This document shows positions 3,329 to 10,747 of a stretch of DNA of 12,028 nt, piece by piece. The stretch is from Candidatus Hermodarchaeota archaeon. Its GTDB lineage: Archaea > Asgardarchaeota > Lokiarchaeia > Sigyniarchaeales > SOKP01. The translations under genes were made by a program, and so were the position numbers. The notes beneath the pieces were generated by a model. The model was not told where the DNA came from. It searched no databases and saw only the letters and a list, made by a program, of their open reading frames with translations. Numbering within the stretch: position 1 is the first letter of the stretch; each line of letters opens with the position of its first letter. The DNA is taken from NCBI GenBank assembly GCA_048885535.1, contig JBHLLO010000083.1:1-12028 (forward strand), given 5' to 3'.

Positions 3329-3510
3329 ATTTAATAACTCAAAAAAAATATTTAAAAAATCTACTAATAATATATGAAATATTAAAAGTGAATTAAAACC
3401 TTTGTATTTCGGTCTTTTTAAAGTAGTCAAGAAACTTTTCTAGTTAAAAAAATAAAAGTTAAAAATAGTAAAATACGCTTTTGTCATCATATCTATATTT
3501 TTATTTGATT

Positions 3511-3525
3511 AAATTTTAATATAAT
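3511..3525 (+). promoter_or_regulatory. Putative archaeal TATA box for the tRNA gene
   Basis: TTTAATATA at 3515-3523 lies about 23-31 nt upstream of the mature tRNA 5' end. The very AT-rich context makes this weak. Confidence 0.35.
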
Positions 3526-3584
3526 AGTAAGAATAAGAATAATTAAGGCCCGTGGCGAAGCATGGATATCGCGGCAGCCTCCTA

Positions 3585-3601
3585 ATTATCCTTGTGGAGA
3601 C
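3585..3601 (+). other. tRNA intron 1, canonical position 37/38, 17 nt, relaxed BHB
   Basis: Central helix CTCC 3579-3582 / GGAG 3596-3599; bulges TA|A (3583-3585) and AC|A (3600-3602); exon-side helix is the anticodon stem. The intron-side helix is poorly paired (T-T, T-G, A-T). Confidence 0.9.
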
Positions 3602-3622
3602 AGCTGACGGACGGGGGTTCAA

Positions 3623-3654
3623 ATCAACAAGTTCGTTCAATTTGTTGAGAACAC
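3623..3654 (+). other. tRNA intron 2, non-canonical T-loop position 58/59, 32 nt, strict BHB
   Basis: Central helix GTTC 3617-3620 / GAAC 3649-3652; bulges AA|A (3621-3623) and AC|A (3653-3655); perfect 7-bp intron helix TCAACAA 3624-3630 / TTGTTGA 3642-3648; exon-side helix GGGG 3613-3616 / TCCC 3656-3659. Confidence 0.92.
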
Positions 3655-3670
3655 ATCCCCCCGGGCCTGC

Positions 3671-3710
3671 TATTATTTATTTTAAAACTTTTTAAGTTAT
3701 TATTTTTTTA
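3671..3710 (+). terminator. Putative oligo-T terminator after the tRNA
   Basis: Several T runs (TTTATTTT, TTTTT, TTTTTTT) immediately follow the discriminator; archaeal intrinsic termination uses oligo-T tracts. Confidence 0.35.
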
Positions 3711-3718
3711 TCAATTTA

Positions 3719-5683
3719 ATGAAAAAGAAGTATGTTACTACCCTTTCTTATTTAAAAGTCGGTATAAGACCATTATTACCGAATTTTATTAGAAAAATCT
3801 TCTTAATTGTTAACCCTCATGGAGTTTTACCTATAGTTAAGCTTTTGGCATTACTTTTTAGAACTGGTTTTCCTAAATTCGGTGTTAAACGGTACCCAGA
3901 ATATATGTTAATTTTAAAGGATGGAACAAAATTAGCTACTGATGTTTATGTACCTAAAATAGTTTTAAAGAAAAAAAGGAAATGTCCCACAATTTTAATA
4001 CGCTTACCATATTGGAAAGATAATTTTAGTGTTCTTGGATACGCTTATGCAGCATATGGATTTGTGACCATTTTGCAAGATATAAGAGGGACGGGTCATT
4101 CAGAGGGCTTTAATTATTATTTATTTACTGAAAGAGAAGATGGATTAGAAACACTTGAATGGATTTCTAAGCAATATTGGTATAATGGTAAGATTGGAAT
4201 GATTGGAGCAAGTTACTTCGGTATTACTCAATTAGCGTTGTCATGGGATAATAAGTATTTAACTTGTATAGCACCAGCAATTACTTCAACTTTAAACCTC
4301 TGGAAAAACAATGGAGGGCTTCAAATACATGAGCTTACAAATTCAATTTATAGAATTATGGTCAATATAGTATCCCATCGAGATGCTCCTAGGGTCGATA
4401 AATTAACAAATTTAATGCAAGAAAGATATTTGAATCCAAGATATGCATTATTCAGTGATTCAACTAGAAAAAGAAGAAAAATTACATTATCTCAATTAAA
4501 AGGGAAATCAATCAACGAAATTCAGGATCTTTTAATAAAATACTATGATGTCAAAAATTTTAATCCCTCAAAGCGAAATTTAAAAACTTACTTTACATTT
4601 CTGAACGATTTCTTAATAACACGTGGTCTGGACAAGGATACAGAAAAAATGACAGGTTTTTTAAACATGGATGTAAAAAAGTTTTCACAACCTGCCTTAA
4701 TGTTAACAGGATGGCAAGATATGTTTTTTGAGAAACAGTTAATAGACTTTTTGGAAATTAAGGCTAACGCTACAGGCTTAGCAAAGGAATATACAAAATT
4801 AATAATTGGTTCTTGGGGTCATGCAGCATCTGGTCATCCAGAAAGTCGATTAAACAATGCAGGAATTCTGAAGTTCTTTAAAGAATTTCTATGTCTTGGT
4901 TGGAATAAATATTGGTTAATGGATGATGAAAAAGCATTTCCTGAAATCGATAAACCATCTATTAAATACTGGGTTATGGGAAAAAATATTTGGAAATATA
5001 CTGAAAGATGGCCTCCTGACGGGGTAAAATATCAAAAAATCTATATACATTCCCAAGGACATGCAAATAGTGTAAAAGGAAATGGTTTTTTAAGCTTTGA
5101 TAAACCAAATGAAGAACCCGAAGATCAATACATATTCGATCCTTTAGATCCTGTAATTACAAAAGGAGGGAGAAATCTGGGAATACGAAAGGGTTCTCGA
5201 AATCAAAAGGATGCTGAAAAAAGAGATGATGTCCTGATTTACACTTCAAAATCTTTAGACCATGGTCTTGAAATTACAGGACAGGTTAAGATAATATTAT
5301 ACGCCTCTACTTCTGCAAAAGATACAGATTTCATGGTAAAGCTAGTTGATGTTTATCCACGAGGAAGAGCAATTAACATTTTAGATGCTGGTGTTAGAGC
5401 AATGTACAGAAATGGCGAAGATAATCCTTCCTTAATTGAACCTAGTAAAATATATAGGTATGAGATCAATTTAGGAAACATTTCAAATTATTTTAGAAAA
5501 AGACATCGAATAAGAATAGAAATTACTTCTAGTAATTTTCCTAGATTCGATATTAATTCTAATCTTGGAGGAGACACTCATCTTGGAGAGTACATTGTTG
5601 CAAACCAAAAAATTTATCACAATCAGACATATCCAAGTCATCTTATAATACCTACTGTTCCTGAAAAGTCAGAGAAACCTTAA
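3719..5683 (+). CDS. CocE/NonD family serine hydrolase (peptidase S15-like alpha/beta hydrolase with C-terminal jelly-roll domain)
   Basis: 'DGTKLATDVYVP', 'PTILIRLPY', 'QDIRGTGHSEG', nucleophile motif 'IGMIGASYFG', acid 'TGWQD', His 'IIGSWGH', and C-terminal 'DTDFMVKLVDVYP' and 'IRIEITSSNFPRFDIN', all typical of CocE/NonD. Confidence 0.93.
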   Translation: MKKKYVTTLSYLKVGIRPLLPNFIRKIFLIVNPHGVLPIVKLLALLFRTGFPKFGVKRYPEYMLILKDGTKLATDVYVPKIVLKKKRKCPTILIRLPYWKDNFSVLGYAYAAYGFVTILQDIRGTGHSEGFNYYLFTEREDGLETLEWISKQYWYNGKIGMIGASYFGITQLALSWDNKYLTCIAPAITSTLNLWKNNGGLQIHELTNSIYRIMVNIVSHRDAPRVDKLTNLMQERYLNPRYALFSDSTRKRRKITLSQLKGKSINEIQDLLIKYYDVKNFNPSKRNLKTYFTFLNDFLITRGLDKDTEKMTGFLNMDVKKFSQPALMLTGWQDMFFEKQLIDFLEIKANATGLAKEYTKLIIGSWGHAASGHPESRLNNAGILKFFKEFLCLGWNKYWLMDDEKAFPEIDKPSIKYWVMGKNIWKYTERWPPDGVKYQKIYIHSQGHANSVKGNGFLSFDKPNEEPEDQYIFDPLDPVITKGGRNLGIRKGSRNQKDAEKRDDVLIYTSKSLDHGLEITGQVKIILYASTSAKDTDFMVKLVDVYPRGRAINILDAGVRAMYRNGEDNPSLIEPSKIYRYEINLGNISNYFRKRHRIRIEITSSNFPRFDINSNLGGDTHLGEYIVANQKIYHNQTYPSHLIIPTVPEKSEKP

Positions 5684-5808: not shown

Positions 5809-7554
5809 GTGAAAAATTTGCCAAAAAAAATTTTAAGAGTAGATATGACTAATCTCGTAACTAAGTTTGAAGATTTACCTAAAGACTATTTTGCACTTGG
5901 TGGGAGAGGAATGACTTCAACTATCGTAGCAAAAGAGGTTCCTCCCACATGTAACCCCTTAGGCATCCATAACAAACTTGTTTTTGCTCCAGGAATTGTT
6001 ACAGGTACAGCAGCCCCTTCTTCTGGTCGATTATCAGTAGGTGGAAAATCTCCATTAACTGGAGGAATTAAGGAAGCTAATGCTGGAACTCCATTTGCTC
6101 AAATGCTAGCAAGAATGCGAATTGGAGCAATTATAGTAGAAGGCAAACACAAAGGAGACGACTATTACTTATTAAAAGTCACTAACAACGGTGCTGAATT
6201 TATAAAAGCAAATCAATGGGTAGGAAAAGGATTATATGAGGTTTATAAAGATTTACAAAAAGAATTTGGAGAAAAAGTAGGTATTTGCGGTGTTGGAATA
6301 GCAGCAGAAATCCTTGGAGCAATGTCAGGAATTTGTTTTAACGATCCAGAAGGACTACCAAGCAGATATGCAGGTAGAGGAGGCCTTGGAGCGGTTATGG
6401 CATCCAAAAAACTCAAATTTATTATAGTAGATGAGACTGGAGCTCCTGGAGTTGAAATTGCTAATCAGGAAGTCTTTAAACAAGGTATCACAAAATTAAG
6501 AGATGCATTAATGTCCCATGATGTCACAAAGGTTGGAGGGGCTCTCAATTCGTATGGTACAAGTGTTTTAGTAAATATTATGAATGAAGCTGGAGGGTTA
6601 CCTCAAAGGAATTTCTCTGCGGGTCGAGACGATAGATCCCAGAACATCTCAGGTGAAGCAAAGGCAGAAGCTATTAAGAAAAGAGGAGGCACAAGACCTC
6701 ACTTCTGCAATCCTGGGTGCATTATCCAATGTTCTGAAGTATGGACAAAACCTGATGGAACAGAGCCGGTTGGTGTTTTAGAATATGAAAGCGTTTGGGC
6801 TCTTGGAGCAAACTGTGGTATTTATGATTTAGATGATATTGGAGAACTCAATCGGGCTTGCAATGATTTAGGAACTGATACAATTGAAGCAGGAGATACT
6901 ATTGCTGTAGCCATGGAAGGAGGATTAATTGAGTTTGGAGATGGAAAAGGCGCGTTAAAACTCATGGAAGAGATTCGAAATAAAACACCAACGGGAAAGA
7001 TATTAGCTAATGGAACAGAAATCACGGGCAAGGTTTTAGGAGTTACAAGAATCCCAACTGTTAAAGGTCAAGGTTTACCAGCCTATGATCCACGACCAGT
7101 CCGTGGAATTGGAGTCACATATGCTACGACACCAATGGGTGCAGACCATACAGCAGGTTATTGTATTGCAACTGAAATACTTGGGGTGGGCGGCGAAGCA
7201 GATCCAAGGGATACTAAAAAAGCAGATCTCTCTCGAAATCTCCAATTAGCAACAGCAGCTGTAGATGCAACCGGATATTGCTTATTTATAGCTTTTGCTG
7301 TTCTCGATATTCCCTCAGGATTAGAAGGTGTTGTCGAATCATTAAATGGCGTACTAGGAGCGTCTCTAACTGTGGGGGACGTTCCTAAAGTTGGCCAGCA
7401 AATAATCGATATAGAAAGGAAATTTAATAAAGCTGCGGGATTTACAGCTGTACATGATAGACTCCCCGAATTTTTTAGTGAAGAGAAGGTTGCACCCCAC
7501 GATGTAGTGTTTGAAGTAACTGATGAGGAATTAGATAAAGTTTGGGGACCTTAA
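5809..7554 (+). CDS. aor: Tungsten-dependent aldehyde:ferredoxin oxidoreductase family protein
   Basis: 'ILRVDMT', 'LGGRG', 'KSPLTGGIKEANAG', 'AGRGGLGAVMASKKLK', 'EYES', 'AYDPR...GADH'. Fe-S ligand candidates C300, C304, C308 and C491. GTG start. Confidence 0.95.
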   Translation: MKNLPKKILRVDMTNLVTKFEDLPKDYFALGGRGMTSTIVAKEVPPTCNPLGIHNKLVFAPGIVTGTAAPSSGRLSVGGKSPLTGGIKEANAGTPFAQMLARMRIGAIIVEGKHKGDDYYLLKVTNNGAEFIKANQWVGKGLYEVYKDLQKEFGEKVGICGVGIAAEILGAMSGICFNDPEGLPSRYAGRGGLGAVMASKKLKFIIVDETGAPGVEIANQEVFKQGITKLRDALMSHDVTKVGGALNSYGTSVLVNIMNEAGGLPQRNFSAGRDDRSQNISGEAKAEAIKKRGGTRPHFCNPGCIIQCSEVWTKPDGTEPVGVLEYESVWALGANCGIYDLDDIGELNRACNDLGTDTIEAGDTIAVAMEGGLIEFGDGKGALKLMEEIRNKTPTGKILANGTEITGKVLGVTRIPTVKGQGLPAYDPRPVRGIGVTYATTPMGADHTAGYCIATEILGVGGEADPRDTKKADLSRNLQLATAAVDATGYCLFIAFAVLDIPSGLEGVVESLNGVLGASLTVGDVPKVGQQIIDIERKFNKAAGFTAVHDRLPEFFSEEKVAPHDVVFEVTDEELDKVWGP

Positions 7555-7566
7555 GATTACCATAAG

Positions 7567-7854
7567 ATGACAATTCTAGTAAAATTCTTCGGGAACTTAG
7601 TTAGTAAAATAGCGAATAATGAATCGGAGAGATCAAGTCCTTTAAATATCAATATCAACAGTGAAGGTATTGAATTTGTTGCTGACATACTAAAAAAATT
7701 TTCAATTGAAGAGAGTGAAACTAGTCATATTTTTGTTAATGGTGTATATGCTGGAATTAAAAAGAGAGTAAAAGATGGAGACCGAGTAGGAATATTTCCT
7801 AAGAATATGGGATTACTATATAAATGGTATTTTACAAGGCATGAGGATGAATAA
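7567..7854 (+). CDS. MoaD/ThiS-like beta-grasp protein lacking the C-terminal Gly-Gly
   Basis: 'ILVKFFGNL...VADILKKF...IFVNG...VKDGDRVGIFP' matches the MoaD/ThiS pattern, but it ends KNMGLLYKWYFTRHEDE instead of PxxGG. Confidence 0.8.
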   Translation: MTILVKFFGNLVSKIANNESERSSPLNININSEGIEFVADILKKFSIEESETSHIFVNGVYAGIKKRVKDGDRVGIFPKNMGLLYKWYFTRHEDE

Positions 7855-8098
7855 AGAAAATAGATATATATCAGTAACAGTAAAATTCTTTGCAGATTTC
7901 AGAAATTTTGGACCGGATAAAGCAACCTTAGAGGTACCAATAGGGAGTAAGATTCAATATCTTCTTGATAAATATGAGATCCCATATATTAAAAGGAATT
8001 TGGTAATTCTCGTAAACGGATTACCACATAAAAAACCTGATGAAGAAATGAAAGATGGAGATATTATCGCCATTTTTCCACCAATTGCTGGTGGTTAA
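7841..8098 (+). CDS. moaD: MoaD/ThiS/SAMP ubiquitin-like sulfur carrier
   Basis: 'VTVKFFADFR...ILVNG...MKDGDIIAIFPPIAGG' with terminal GG. It overlaps the end of the preceding gene (start 7841 or 7847), consistent with translational coupling. MoaD-like genes are commonly found next to aor. Confidence 0.9.
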   Translation: MRMNKENRYISVTVKFFADFRNFGPDKATLEVPIGSKIQYLLDKYEIPYIKRNLVILVNGLPHKKPDEEMKDGDIIAIFPPIAGG

Positions 8099-8946: not shown

Positions 8947-9525
8947 TTATTTTGCTTTTTGCTGATTATAAAATTTCTCCCAATCTTCCTTTAAGAACCC
9001 ATAGCTTTTAGTATCAACATATTTTCCATCTTTGTAAAAATCGTCCTTAATAATCCCTTCAAGAGTAAAGCCCACCTTTTCAGCAACTTTCCAAGATCCG
9101 ACGTTCTCAACAGCGACTCGCCCACTAATCTTATGAAGATTTAATTCCTCAAAACCATATTGAAGAACTAATTGCACAGCCTCAGTTGCGATATCATTGC
9201 CCCAATATTCAATTTCGCCGATATATATAAAAGCGTTCGCCCACTGGTTAACCCAATTAATTCGATTCAGGCCACAGGTTCCTATAGGTTTTTGATCTTG
9301 CTTATGGATAATGGTAAAATCAATAAATTCTTTGAACTTCCCATTTGGAGGATTTTCAAATCTTTCTTTCATGTTTTCAAATATAACTGGTATAGGACCA
9401 CGAAAAAAGCGGCGAACCTTTTGATCACTCATCCATTTACAATATAAATGAACATATTTTGCACTTGAAGGAATTAAATCTACAATTTCACCCTTAATGA
9501 ATGTATTGAATTCTTTACTTTCCAT
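8947..9525 (-). CDS. GNAT N-acetyltransferase, RimJ/RimL family (copy 1, most divergent)
   Basis: 'KPIGTCGL..INW', 'EYWGNDIATEAV', 'YGFEELNLHKI', 'ENVGSWKVAEKVGFTLEG', 'KDGKYVD'. Confidence 0.92.
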   Translation of the reverse strand: MESKEFNTFIKGEIVDLIPSSAKYVHLYCKWMSDQKVRRFFRGPIPVIFENMKERFENPPNGKFKEFIDFTIIHKQDQKPIGTCGLNRINWVNQWANAFIYIGEIEYWGNDIATEAVQLVLQYGFEELNLHKISGRVAVENVGSWKVAEKVGFTLEGIIKDDFYKDGKYVDTKSYGFLKEDWEKFYNQQKAK

Positions 9526-9557
9526 ATATTATTCATCAGTCTAGAATAGAAGTAAGT

Positions 9558-10142
9558 TTAAAAAGATGATTCACCTTTTTTTAGCCAATCTCTTTTAAAA
9601 AGAGCAAATCTATGGTTATCTACAAATTTTCCATCTACATACATTTCTTCTTTTAATACCGCTTCTTTTTGAAAGCCTAGCTTTTCTGCAGCTCTTAATG
9701 ATCTCTTATTCGGAGTAAATACCCCAGCATAAATTTTATGGAAATTTAATTCGGTAAAACCGTAATTAATTAAGAGTTTTGAGACTTCTACTGCTATTCC
9801 TCTTCCCCAGTATTCTGGTTCTCCTATTGAAGCCCATATGTTTGCATTAAGATTAATCCAATTTATATGACTAAACCCTGCTTGACCAATTGGTCGTTTA
9901 TCTGCCTTATGATAAATAGTGAATGCAATGAAGTCCCTTAAACGGCGATCTTGCTCGGGCTCAAACCATTTTTTAACCTGATCTAATGTGTGTGGAAACA
10001 TTTGTCGAGCATAATGTCTAACGTCTGGGTTATTCATCCATTTGCAATATAGATTCTTCCATTTGGAATTTTGAGTTACTAAGTCTATATTTTCGCCTTT
10101 AATAAATGGATAAACTTCTATTTCTTCTTTTTTTTCTTCCAT
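9558..10142 (-). CDS. GNAT N-acetyltransferase, RimJ/RimL family (copy 2)
   Basis: 'IGEPEYWGRGIA', 'YGFTELNFHKI', 'NKRSLRAAEKLGFQKEA', 'YVDGKFVD'. Confidence 0.93.
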   Translation of the reverse strand: MEEKKEEIEVYPFIKGENIDLVTQNSKWKNLYCKWMNNPDVRHYARQMFPHTLDQVKKWFEPEQDRRLRDFIAFTIYHKADKRPIGQAGFSHINWINLNANIWASIGEPEYWGRGIAVEVSKLLINYGFTELNFHKIYAGVFTPNKRSLRAAEKLGFQKEAVLKEEMYVDGKFVDNHRFALFKRDWLKKGESSF

Positions 10143-10162
10143 TTACTACTCACTTTTGATTT

Positions 10163-10747
10163 TCATTTTTGTTCTTTTTCTTTTTGTTTTAACCAATCCT
10201 CTTTAAAAAGGGCAAATTTATGATGATCCACATACCTGCCATCAACATATGCTTCTCCTTTCAGAACCGCTTCTTTTTGAAAGCCTAATTTTTCTGCGGC
10301 ACGAAGAGATCTTTCATTTGGTGAAAATACTCCAGCAAAAATTTTGTGAAAATTTAATTCTGTAAAACCATAATTAATTACCAATTTTGCTGCCTCTCCA
10401 ATGATTCCTTTTCCCCAATACTCTGGTTCTCCAATGAGGCCATAAAGATTTGCATTCCTATTTATCCAATTTATACGACCAAAACCTATATCTCCAATCG
10501 CTTTCTTATCTTGTTTATGCCAGATGATAAATCCAACCCATTCTGGCATTTCTCTTCCTCTTGGTTCATGCCATTTCTTTATTTCTTCAATAGAGTGTGG
10601 AAACATATTTCTAGAATAGTGGCGTACTTTTGGATCATTAACCCATTTAGCAATAAGGTTAGCCCATTGAGAACCGGGTGCTACTAAATCAATTCGTTCT
10701 CCCTTTATGAACGGAAATGGTTCTGTTTCTTCTTTTTTTTCATTCAA
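10163..10747 (-). CDS. GNAT N-acetyltransferase, RimJ/RimL family (copy 3)
   Basis: 'IGEPEYWGKGII', 'YGFTELNFHKI', 'NERSLRAAEKLGFQKEA'. TTG start; the N-terminus aligns with copy 2 (MNEKKEE vs MEEKKEE), which supports it. Confidence 0.93.
   Translation of the reverse strand: MNEKKEETEPFPFIKGERIDLVAPGSQWANLIAKWVNDPKVRHYSRNMFPHSIEEIKKWHEPRGREMPEWVGFIIWHKQDKKAIGDIGFGRINWINRNANLYGLIGEPEYWGKGIIGEAAKLVINYGFTELNFHKIFAGVFSPNERSLRAAEKLGFQKEAVLKGEAYVDGRYVDHHKFALFKEDWLKQKEKEQK

Follow-up and report, generated by a model that had tools for sequence, protein, structure and literature searches.

In three Asgard genomes, 92-95% of the tRNA genes were found to contain introns (Valentin-Alvarado et al. 2024, PMC11291895), and a recent preprint counts, for three families, 2.2 intervening sequences per gene (Goswami et al. 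2026, 10.64898/2026.10.13.758758). This preprint describes the anticodon loop and the T-arm as the sites where called Asgard introns cluster, and it infers repeated gains (10.64898/2026.10.13.758758). The multi-intron Asgard genes published in these two sources belong to Atabeyarchaeia and Freyarchaeia/Jordiarchaeia (PMC11291895; 10.64898/2026.10.13.758758), whereas the genome studied here is of the Lokiarchaeia type. The main text of the preprint contains neither 'Lokiarch' nor 'Promethearch', and its supplements may list such genomes and intron positions (10.64898/2026.10.13.758758). tRNA genes have been predicted in a Lokiarchaeota MAG, and incomplete tRNA sets were described for Asgard genomes (Kaneta et al. 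2018, PMC5829648). In Pyrobaculum islandicum, the tRNA-Pro(UGG) gene carries introns at positions 25/26, 37/38 and 56/57 (Yoshihisa 2014, PMC4090602). The non-canonical positions named in that review are 53/54, 56/57, 59/60 'etc.', and 58/59 is not spelled out in this list (PMC4090602). An earlier note on the DNA analysed here regarded multi-intron and non-canonical-intron tRNAs as best described in Thermoproteales and a few other archaeal groups; multi-intron Asgard tRNA genes have already been published. Position 58/59 is reportedly listed in Sugahara's tables of 2008.

We analysed a window of 12,028 nt, which is the whole stretch of DNA under study (contig C83), from a draft MAG (3.09 Mb, 112 contigs, 30% GC, 91.6% complete). 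Nucleotides 3546-3669 of the forward strand encode a true pre-tRNA-Arg(CCT) that is interrupted by two introns, one of 17 nt at the canonical position 37/38 and one of 32 nt at the T-loop position 58/59 (Table 1). The gene is real; its two-intron layout is already known for Asgard archaea and is no surprise to a specialist. Compared to the Thermoproteales and other Crenarchaeota, the locus is alike in combining a canonical with a T-loop intron and a strict with a relaxed BHB, and would be alike in a broad-specificity (alpha-beta)2 EndA (PMC4090602). However, the genome belongs to a different phylum and is mesophilic and AT-rich. Its intron load looks lighter than that of the published Asgard genomes, with 8 of the 19 scan-confirmed tRNA genes being intron-less in an incomplete census.

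Table 1. Features of the tRNA-Arg(CCT) locus and further tRNA genes of the same genome. Positions are those of the window unless a contig is named.
Feature	Position	Strand	Description
LSM/Sm-like gene, 122 aa, PF01423	3062-3430	-	divergently upstream of tRNA-Arg(CCT)
TATA-box-like element TTTTAATATAAT	3514..3525	+	32 to 21 nt upstream of tRNA position 1; sequence reading
Exon 1, positions 1-37	3546..3584	+	acceptor 5' strand with A1, D-arm, anticodon stem 5' strand, loop CTCCTA
Intron 1, 17 nt, canonical 37/38	3585..3601	+	relaxed motif; in-silico splicing, scan
Exon 2, positions 38-58	3602..3622	+	A38, anticodon stem 3' strand, 5-nt variable region, T-stem GGGGG, TTCAA
Intron 2, 32 nt, T-loop 58/59	3623..3654	+	strict hBHBh'; motif, scan, orthologues
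Exon 3, positions 59-73	3655..3669	+	AT of T-loop, T-stem CCCCC, acceptor CGGGCCT, discriminator G
T-rich trailer TTATTTATTTT ... CTTTTT	3673..3694	+	sequence reading
S15 peptidase gene	3719-5683	+	downstream of tRNA
tRNA-Val(TAC)			T-loop intron 59/60
tRNA-Asn(GTT), three-intron gene			T-loop intron 59/60
Probable tRNA-Leu(CAA)			T-loop intron 59/60
Probable initiator tRNA-Met	contig C22, ~32440-32570	-	starts AGCGGGG, A1:U72, anticodon CAT; apparent anticodon-loop intron and 32-nt 59/60 intron (32470-32501)
tRNA-Val(CAC) candidate	contig C8, 62079-62245	+	30-nt 58/59 intron (62215-62244), central helix 3/4 pairs; two more inserts by eye
tRNA-SeC(tca)	contig C73, 9476-9568	-	ARAGORN call and Infernal, 34.6 bits

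Coordinates and sequences of the gene, read directly from the window, match those listed in the earlier note. Joining the exons in silico (3546-3584, 3602-3622 and 3655-3669) gave a 75-nt product of 67% GC, which ARAGORN recognized as tRNA-Arg(cct) with the loops CTCCTAA (anticodon) and TTCAAAT (T-loop). After splicing, a 7-nt anticodon loop, U33, the anticodon CCT (3581-3583, within exon 1) and a purine at position 37 are all in place. The stems measure 7, 4, 5 and 5 bp, and the single mismatch, G27:A43, is kept in the orthologues. The same tRNA, now with a 17-nt intron, was called when the 32-nt insert alone was removed and an anticodon-loop intron was allowed. No tRNA was detected by ARAGORN in the unspliced form or in a form lacking intron 1 only, nor in the raw window under default settings. 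With Rfam, no tRNA was found in the raw window at the gathering score, nor around the site at E<=10. The unspliced gene falls below the 29-bit gathering threshold of RF00005 and is not reported; the model cannot bridge two introns. Consistent with the expectation that standard annotation misses this gene, ARAGORN, Rfam and Infernal found nothing on the raw sequence. The weak Rfam matches (rli60, AbsR28 and others; E 0.9-10) were set aside as chance matches.

To read such genes across their introns, we used a scan of our own that resembles SPLITS, in which BHB candidates are listed and a cloverleaf model is walked backwards across up to three of them. Between 3401 and 3800 this BHB-aware scan returned one solution only, identical to that of the earlier note, with a score of 37. 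Shuffling all 850 GC-rich regions of the genome in 15-nt blocks gave 28 solutions on both strands, the highest-scoring of them at 32. Without shuffling, 20 loci from these 850 regions scored at least 34, and ARAGORN confirmed 19 of the 20 after splicing. The cloverleaf/BHB match at the Arg(CCT) locus exceeds chance. A further 39 loci scored 32 or less and are indistinguishable from shuffles; the scan and the tRNA census are thus incomplete. An intact tRNA-Arg(CCT) gene elsewhere, combined with a lack of spliced product in expression data, had been named beforehand as a point that would count against the gene. No such second gene was found in the draft genome (112 contigs, ~92% complete) by ARAGORN, Infernal, BLAST or our own scans. 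Nucleotides 3546-3669 are the sole tRNA-Arg(CCT) gene found, and a second copy may lie on sequence missing from the draft.

Intron 2 has the strict hBHBh' motif. Its central helix, GTTC (3617-3620) paired with GAAC (3649-3652), comprises 4 bp and lies between two 3-nt bulges on opposite strands, AA/A (3621-3623) and AC/A (3653-3655), where the slash marks the predicted cut. The exon helix h (3613-3616:3656-3659, 4 bp) is the T-stem in a shifted register, and the h' helix pairs TCAACAA (3624-3630) with TTGTTGA (3642-3648) in 7 Watson-Crick base pairs. At intron 1, a central helix CTCC (3579-3582):GGAG (3596-3599) was observed together with a 3' bulge AC/A and a 4-bp exon helix formed by the anticodon stem. 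The scan reads the bulge sequences as TA/A and AC/A, with h'=0 in this copy. As there is no h' helix, the 5' 'bulge' is really part of the loop, and intron 1 has the relaxed hBH or bulge-helix-loop (BHL) form. In some orthologues an h' of 3-4 bp is present at this intron. A 4-bp helix flanked by 3-nt bulges had been proposed for each intron; this holds in its strict form for intron 2, whereas intron 1 shows it only in the relaxed form lacking h'. Judged from its motif, intron 1 would need an endonuclease of relaxed specificity. Cutting both introns at the bulge sites in silico restores a canonical cloverleaf according to ARAGORN. The minimum-free-energy fold of the precursor (z = -2.44) contains the acceptor, D and anticodon stems, the intron-1 helix with its bulge, the mature T-stem and the intron-2 h' hairpin. 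The 4-bp central helix of intron 2 is absent from this fold.

A BLAST search with the 124-nt precursor gave a match in 19 of the 24 other genomes of the genus and in genomes of three further genera. In total, 37 genomes from four genera of the family were examined (g1 29, g12 5, g16 2 and g17 1). In other families of the order, BLAST returned short, weak matches only, and the Arg(CCT) gene was not identified there. Selecting the loci by likeness to a query with introns is biased towards similar architectures, and additional weak matches were left out; in this set, both the 37/38 and the 58/59 intron were found in 25 of the 37 genomes, the 37/38 intron alone in 2, the 58/59 intron alone in 4 and no intron in 3. 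The remaining architectures occur in one genome each: a 30-nt variable-region insert alone, a variable-region insert with the 58/59 intron, and a D-arm insert with the 58/59 intron. The 37/38 intron is absent in 10 of the 37 orthologues. The earlier note had suggested surveying relatives for 58/59 introns, which it considered rare. In this lineage they are not: among the 37 orthologous Arg(CCT) genes, 31 carry the 58/59 intron and 6 do not (3 of these wholly intron-less), and at least six tRNA genes of the genome itself carry T-loop introns, two at 58/59 and four at 59/60. The 30-nt variable-region inserts (L018 in G019 and L115 in G087) lie at about 45/46 and both end in AGAAATC. The D-arm insert belongs to L022 (G003).

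Exon 1 is defined by the cloverleaf that ARAGORN and our own scan give for the spliced gene, and in the intron-less orthologues it runs straight into exon 2. The predicted spliced product is identical at 72 of 75 positions to the intron-less gene of genome G066, which Rfam scores as a tRNA with 56 bits. This identity fixes the intron boundaries without recourse to the motif, save for a one-base ambiguity of an A between 58/59 and 59/60. The interruption of tRNA-Arg(CCT) at 37/38 and 58/59 with exact splice sites, as originally proposed, is borne out by in-silico splicing, the scan and the intron-less orthologues.

The 58/59 motif is conserved in structure. Among the 19 orthologues with a T-loop intron from the first search, this intron is 29-32 nt long and widely divergent in sequence; in all 19, the central helix retains 4/4 pairs and the places of the bulges are fixed. 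On a MAFFT alignment of these 19 orthologues, 94.3% of the cells of the 58/59 motif were paired, compared to 81.7 +/- 1.7 in shuffled alignments, of which 0 of 500 reached the real value. Sliding the motif to other registers left 42-66% of the cells paired; the true central helix is paired to 100%. In the h' helix of intron 2, all 4 counted pairs change on both sides, with 29 such cells compared to 11.6 +/- 2.6 in shuffles. Additionally, RNAalifold applied to the 25 two-intron orthologues recovered the acceptor, D, anticodon and T stems, the intron-1 helix with its bulge and the intron-2 helix, with compensatory changes in 14 of 31 pairs.

The one-base ambiguity leaves room for a T-loop intron that is cut one base further 3', at 59/60 instead of 58/59. 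Both the intron and exon 3 start with A, which makes 3622-3623 and 3654-3655 ambiguous and yields the same mature sequence either way, and the four other T-loop introns at 59/60 were placed there by BHB geometry. At the Arg(CCT) locus, however, the 3-nt bulges cut after their second base and the GTTC:GAAC helix fix the site at 58/59. A cut at 59/60 would also yield T59 in 11 orthologues with a T-starting intron, whereas in the six orthologues that lack a T-loop intron this position is occupied by A, G or C. We consider the shifted cut very improbable and retain 58/59. It appears even less probable that the gene is decaying or inactive, so that the inserts stay in the RNA and the reading of AGG codons is left to tRNA-Arg(UCU). 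Two intact intron-less Arg(TCT) genes are present in the genome and the motif at intron 1 is weak, both of which would suit a decaying gene. On the other hand, the exons hardly vary between orthologues with divergent introns, covariation is seen in the helices, and each of the 19 orthologues checked retains the BHB. The cloverleaf is intact after in-silico splicing, the place next to the same LSM gene is kept in 34 of the 37 orthologous loci in four genera (tblastn), and no other Arg(CCT) gene was found, all of which argues against decay.

It had also been considered that the 32-nt insert could be an assembly artefact or chimera that is absent from the DNA of the organism. The source is a draft MAG, and the 5' exon is common to several co-occurring strains, so that the assembly graph branches there. 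In runs X1-X4, co-occurring relatives yielded contigs with a common, deeply covered exon 1 that part exactly at 3584/3585 into different intron-1 sequences, and in one contig (run X4) the same downstream flank (3674) follows a T-arm without interruption. This concern is countered by contigs from four sediment DNA runs of a single study, which possibly include the source sample; they span 3560-3800 with 0-1 differing letters and without gaps or joints. Among the sequencing runs listed as containing the stretch, none was an RNA run. Moreover, the intron is found at the same place in 30 other genomes. An artefact is the least probable of these explanations, and we give it next to no weight. Taken as a whole, the locus is very probably best explained as a two-intron Arg(CCT) gene, with a predicted splicing of the 124-nt precursor to a 75-nt tRNA.

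The genome encodes two EndA paralogues of ~200 aa, which score 99.7 and 70.2 bits to PF01974, as well as RtcB (560.9 bits). Paralogue 1 matches chain 3p1z_B with an E value of 3e-35; the catalytic Tyr/His/Lys are kept and K58 aligns with K44. We take 3p1z to be the Aeropyrum pernix enzyme. Paralogue 2 carries Ala at the place of the catalytic His. Eukaryotic Sen2 and Sen34 were weaker matches of the catalytic paralogue. The closest EndA genes among the 80 loci listed, with 73-91% identity, come from MAGs labelled mostly Promethearchaeota/Promethearchaeia and in a few cases Hod-, Odin- or Thorarchaeota. The phylum Promethearchaeota belongs to the kingdom Promethearchaeati, the Asgard group. The supposition that this is an Asgard genome thus agrees with its nearest EndA relatives. 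An Asgard (alpha-beta)2 EndA with an L1 (Crenarchaea-specific) loop has been described, and the genome here is alike, as read from its sequence, in having two ~200-aa paralogues, the catalytic one with a Lys aligned to K44 (PMC5829648). K44 is the lysine of the loop that gives a broad substrate range (PMC5829648). The pair is of the alpha/beta type, and its specificity would be broad.

In the pathway that we propose, the gene would be transcribed into a 124-nt precursor, and a heteromeric (alpha-beta)2 EndA would cut each intron after the second base of the 3-nt bulges. The 58/59 intron would be offered in a strict hBHBh' motif, for which G53-U54-U55-C56 would be borrowed as one strand of the 4-bp helix while the T-stem register shifts; the 37/38 intron would be offered in a relaxed motif lacking h'. 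RtcB would join the three exons to the 75-nt tRNA, and CCA, which is not encoded at the 3' end of the gene, would be added afterwards. The motifs, boundaries, covariation and enzyme genes described above are observed; from them we infer actual cleavage and ligation, and the order of these steps. Upstream of the gene, the TATA-box-like element may serve as an archaeal promoter, and boxes of the form (C/A)TTTAATATAA or CTTTTATATGA are found at equal distance in several orthologous loci. The T-rich trailer likely acts as a transcription stop, and the orthologues also have T-rich trailers downstream.

At the syntenic Arg(CCT) locus, close relatives have the 37/38 and 58/59 introns in all possible combinations, and variable-region and D-arm inserts occur in addition. 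In a tree of the downstream peptidase from 12 syntenic loci, the T-loop intron is missing from three g1 genes that fall within a clade whose other genes carry it; the inner forks are poorly separated. This suggests at least one precise loss of the T-loop intron, with the direction of change that we infer. Since close relatives may have or lack either intron, the pattern is one of lineage-level turnover and not an ancestral state. This agrees with published descriptions of introns being gained and lost repeatedly at BHB-compatible sites. A further reading, that the Arg(CCT) locus (LSM gene / tRNA / S15 peptidase) captures live and precise tRNA-intron turnover in Lokiarchaeia, is tentative and seems rather unlikely to us. 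If the changes were exact deletions, for example through recombination with reverse-transcribed spliced tRNA, archaeal tRNA intron gain and loss could become testable in natural populations. The evolutionary value of the locus is modest and lies in a boundary-exact Lokiarchaeia example in which alleles of one gene occur with and without introns.

Eukaryotic nuclear tRNA introns resemble those of the Arg(CCT) gene in that they are spliced out by proteins, the EndA homologues Sen2/Sen34, and intron 1 lies at the eukaryotic canonical position 37/38 (PMC4090602). However, most eukaryotic introns occur at 37/38 only and are recognized by a ruler mechanism (PMC4090602), whereas the 58/59 intron is without a general eukaryotic counterpart and is polymorphic here. 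Ectopic T-arm introns are known from Cyanidioschyzon merolae and from nucleomorphs (PMC4090602, PMC3728597). The bearing on the ancestry of eukaryotic tRNA splicing that the earlier note saw in this gene is weak, as the introns come and go among close relatives, and the locus alone tells nothing about the origin of this process.

Scanning the genome for a strict 58/59 signature returned the Arg(CCT) gene only, and a relaxed scan added the Val(CAC) candidate (Table 1). The other relaxed-scan matches to 58/59 were obvious false matches in coding sequence. For the probable initiator tRNA-Met, the full BHB scan gave no solution. Five T-loop introns compared by eye showed no sequence similarity and therefore no support for recent copying between genes. 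Introns were also found by our scan in the D-loops of Ser(GCT) and Arg(TCG). Infernal with RF00005 gave only 26 tRNA matches in the ~92% complete genome, and ARAGORN with introns allowed made 34 calls genome-wide, many of them doubtful. Probably many tRNA genes are hidden by non-canonical or multiple introns. Such genes are silently absent from Asgard tRNA counts and from estimates of codon capacity, which gives the locus its value for annotation.

The tRNA gene forms a GC-rich, intergenic island within the 30% GC genome, and no ORF of at least 60 aa overlaps 3431-3718. Further downstream in the window (5809-8098, forward strand), an aldehyde:ferredoxin oxidoreductase gene is followed by two small ubiquitin-fold ORFs, one Ub-Mut7C-like (7567-7854) and one ThiS/MoaD-like (7841-8098). 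On the reverse strand, three GNAT acetyltransferase paralogues of 192-194 aa each are arranged in tandem at 8947-10747.
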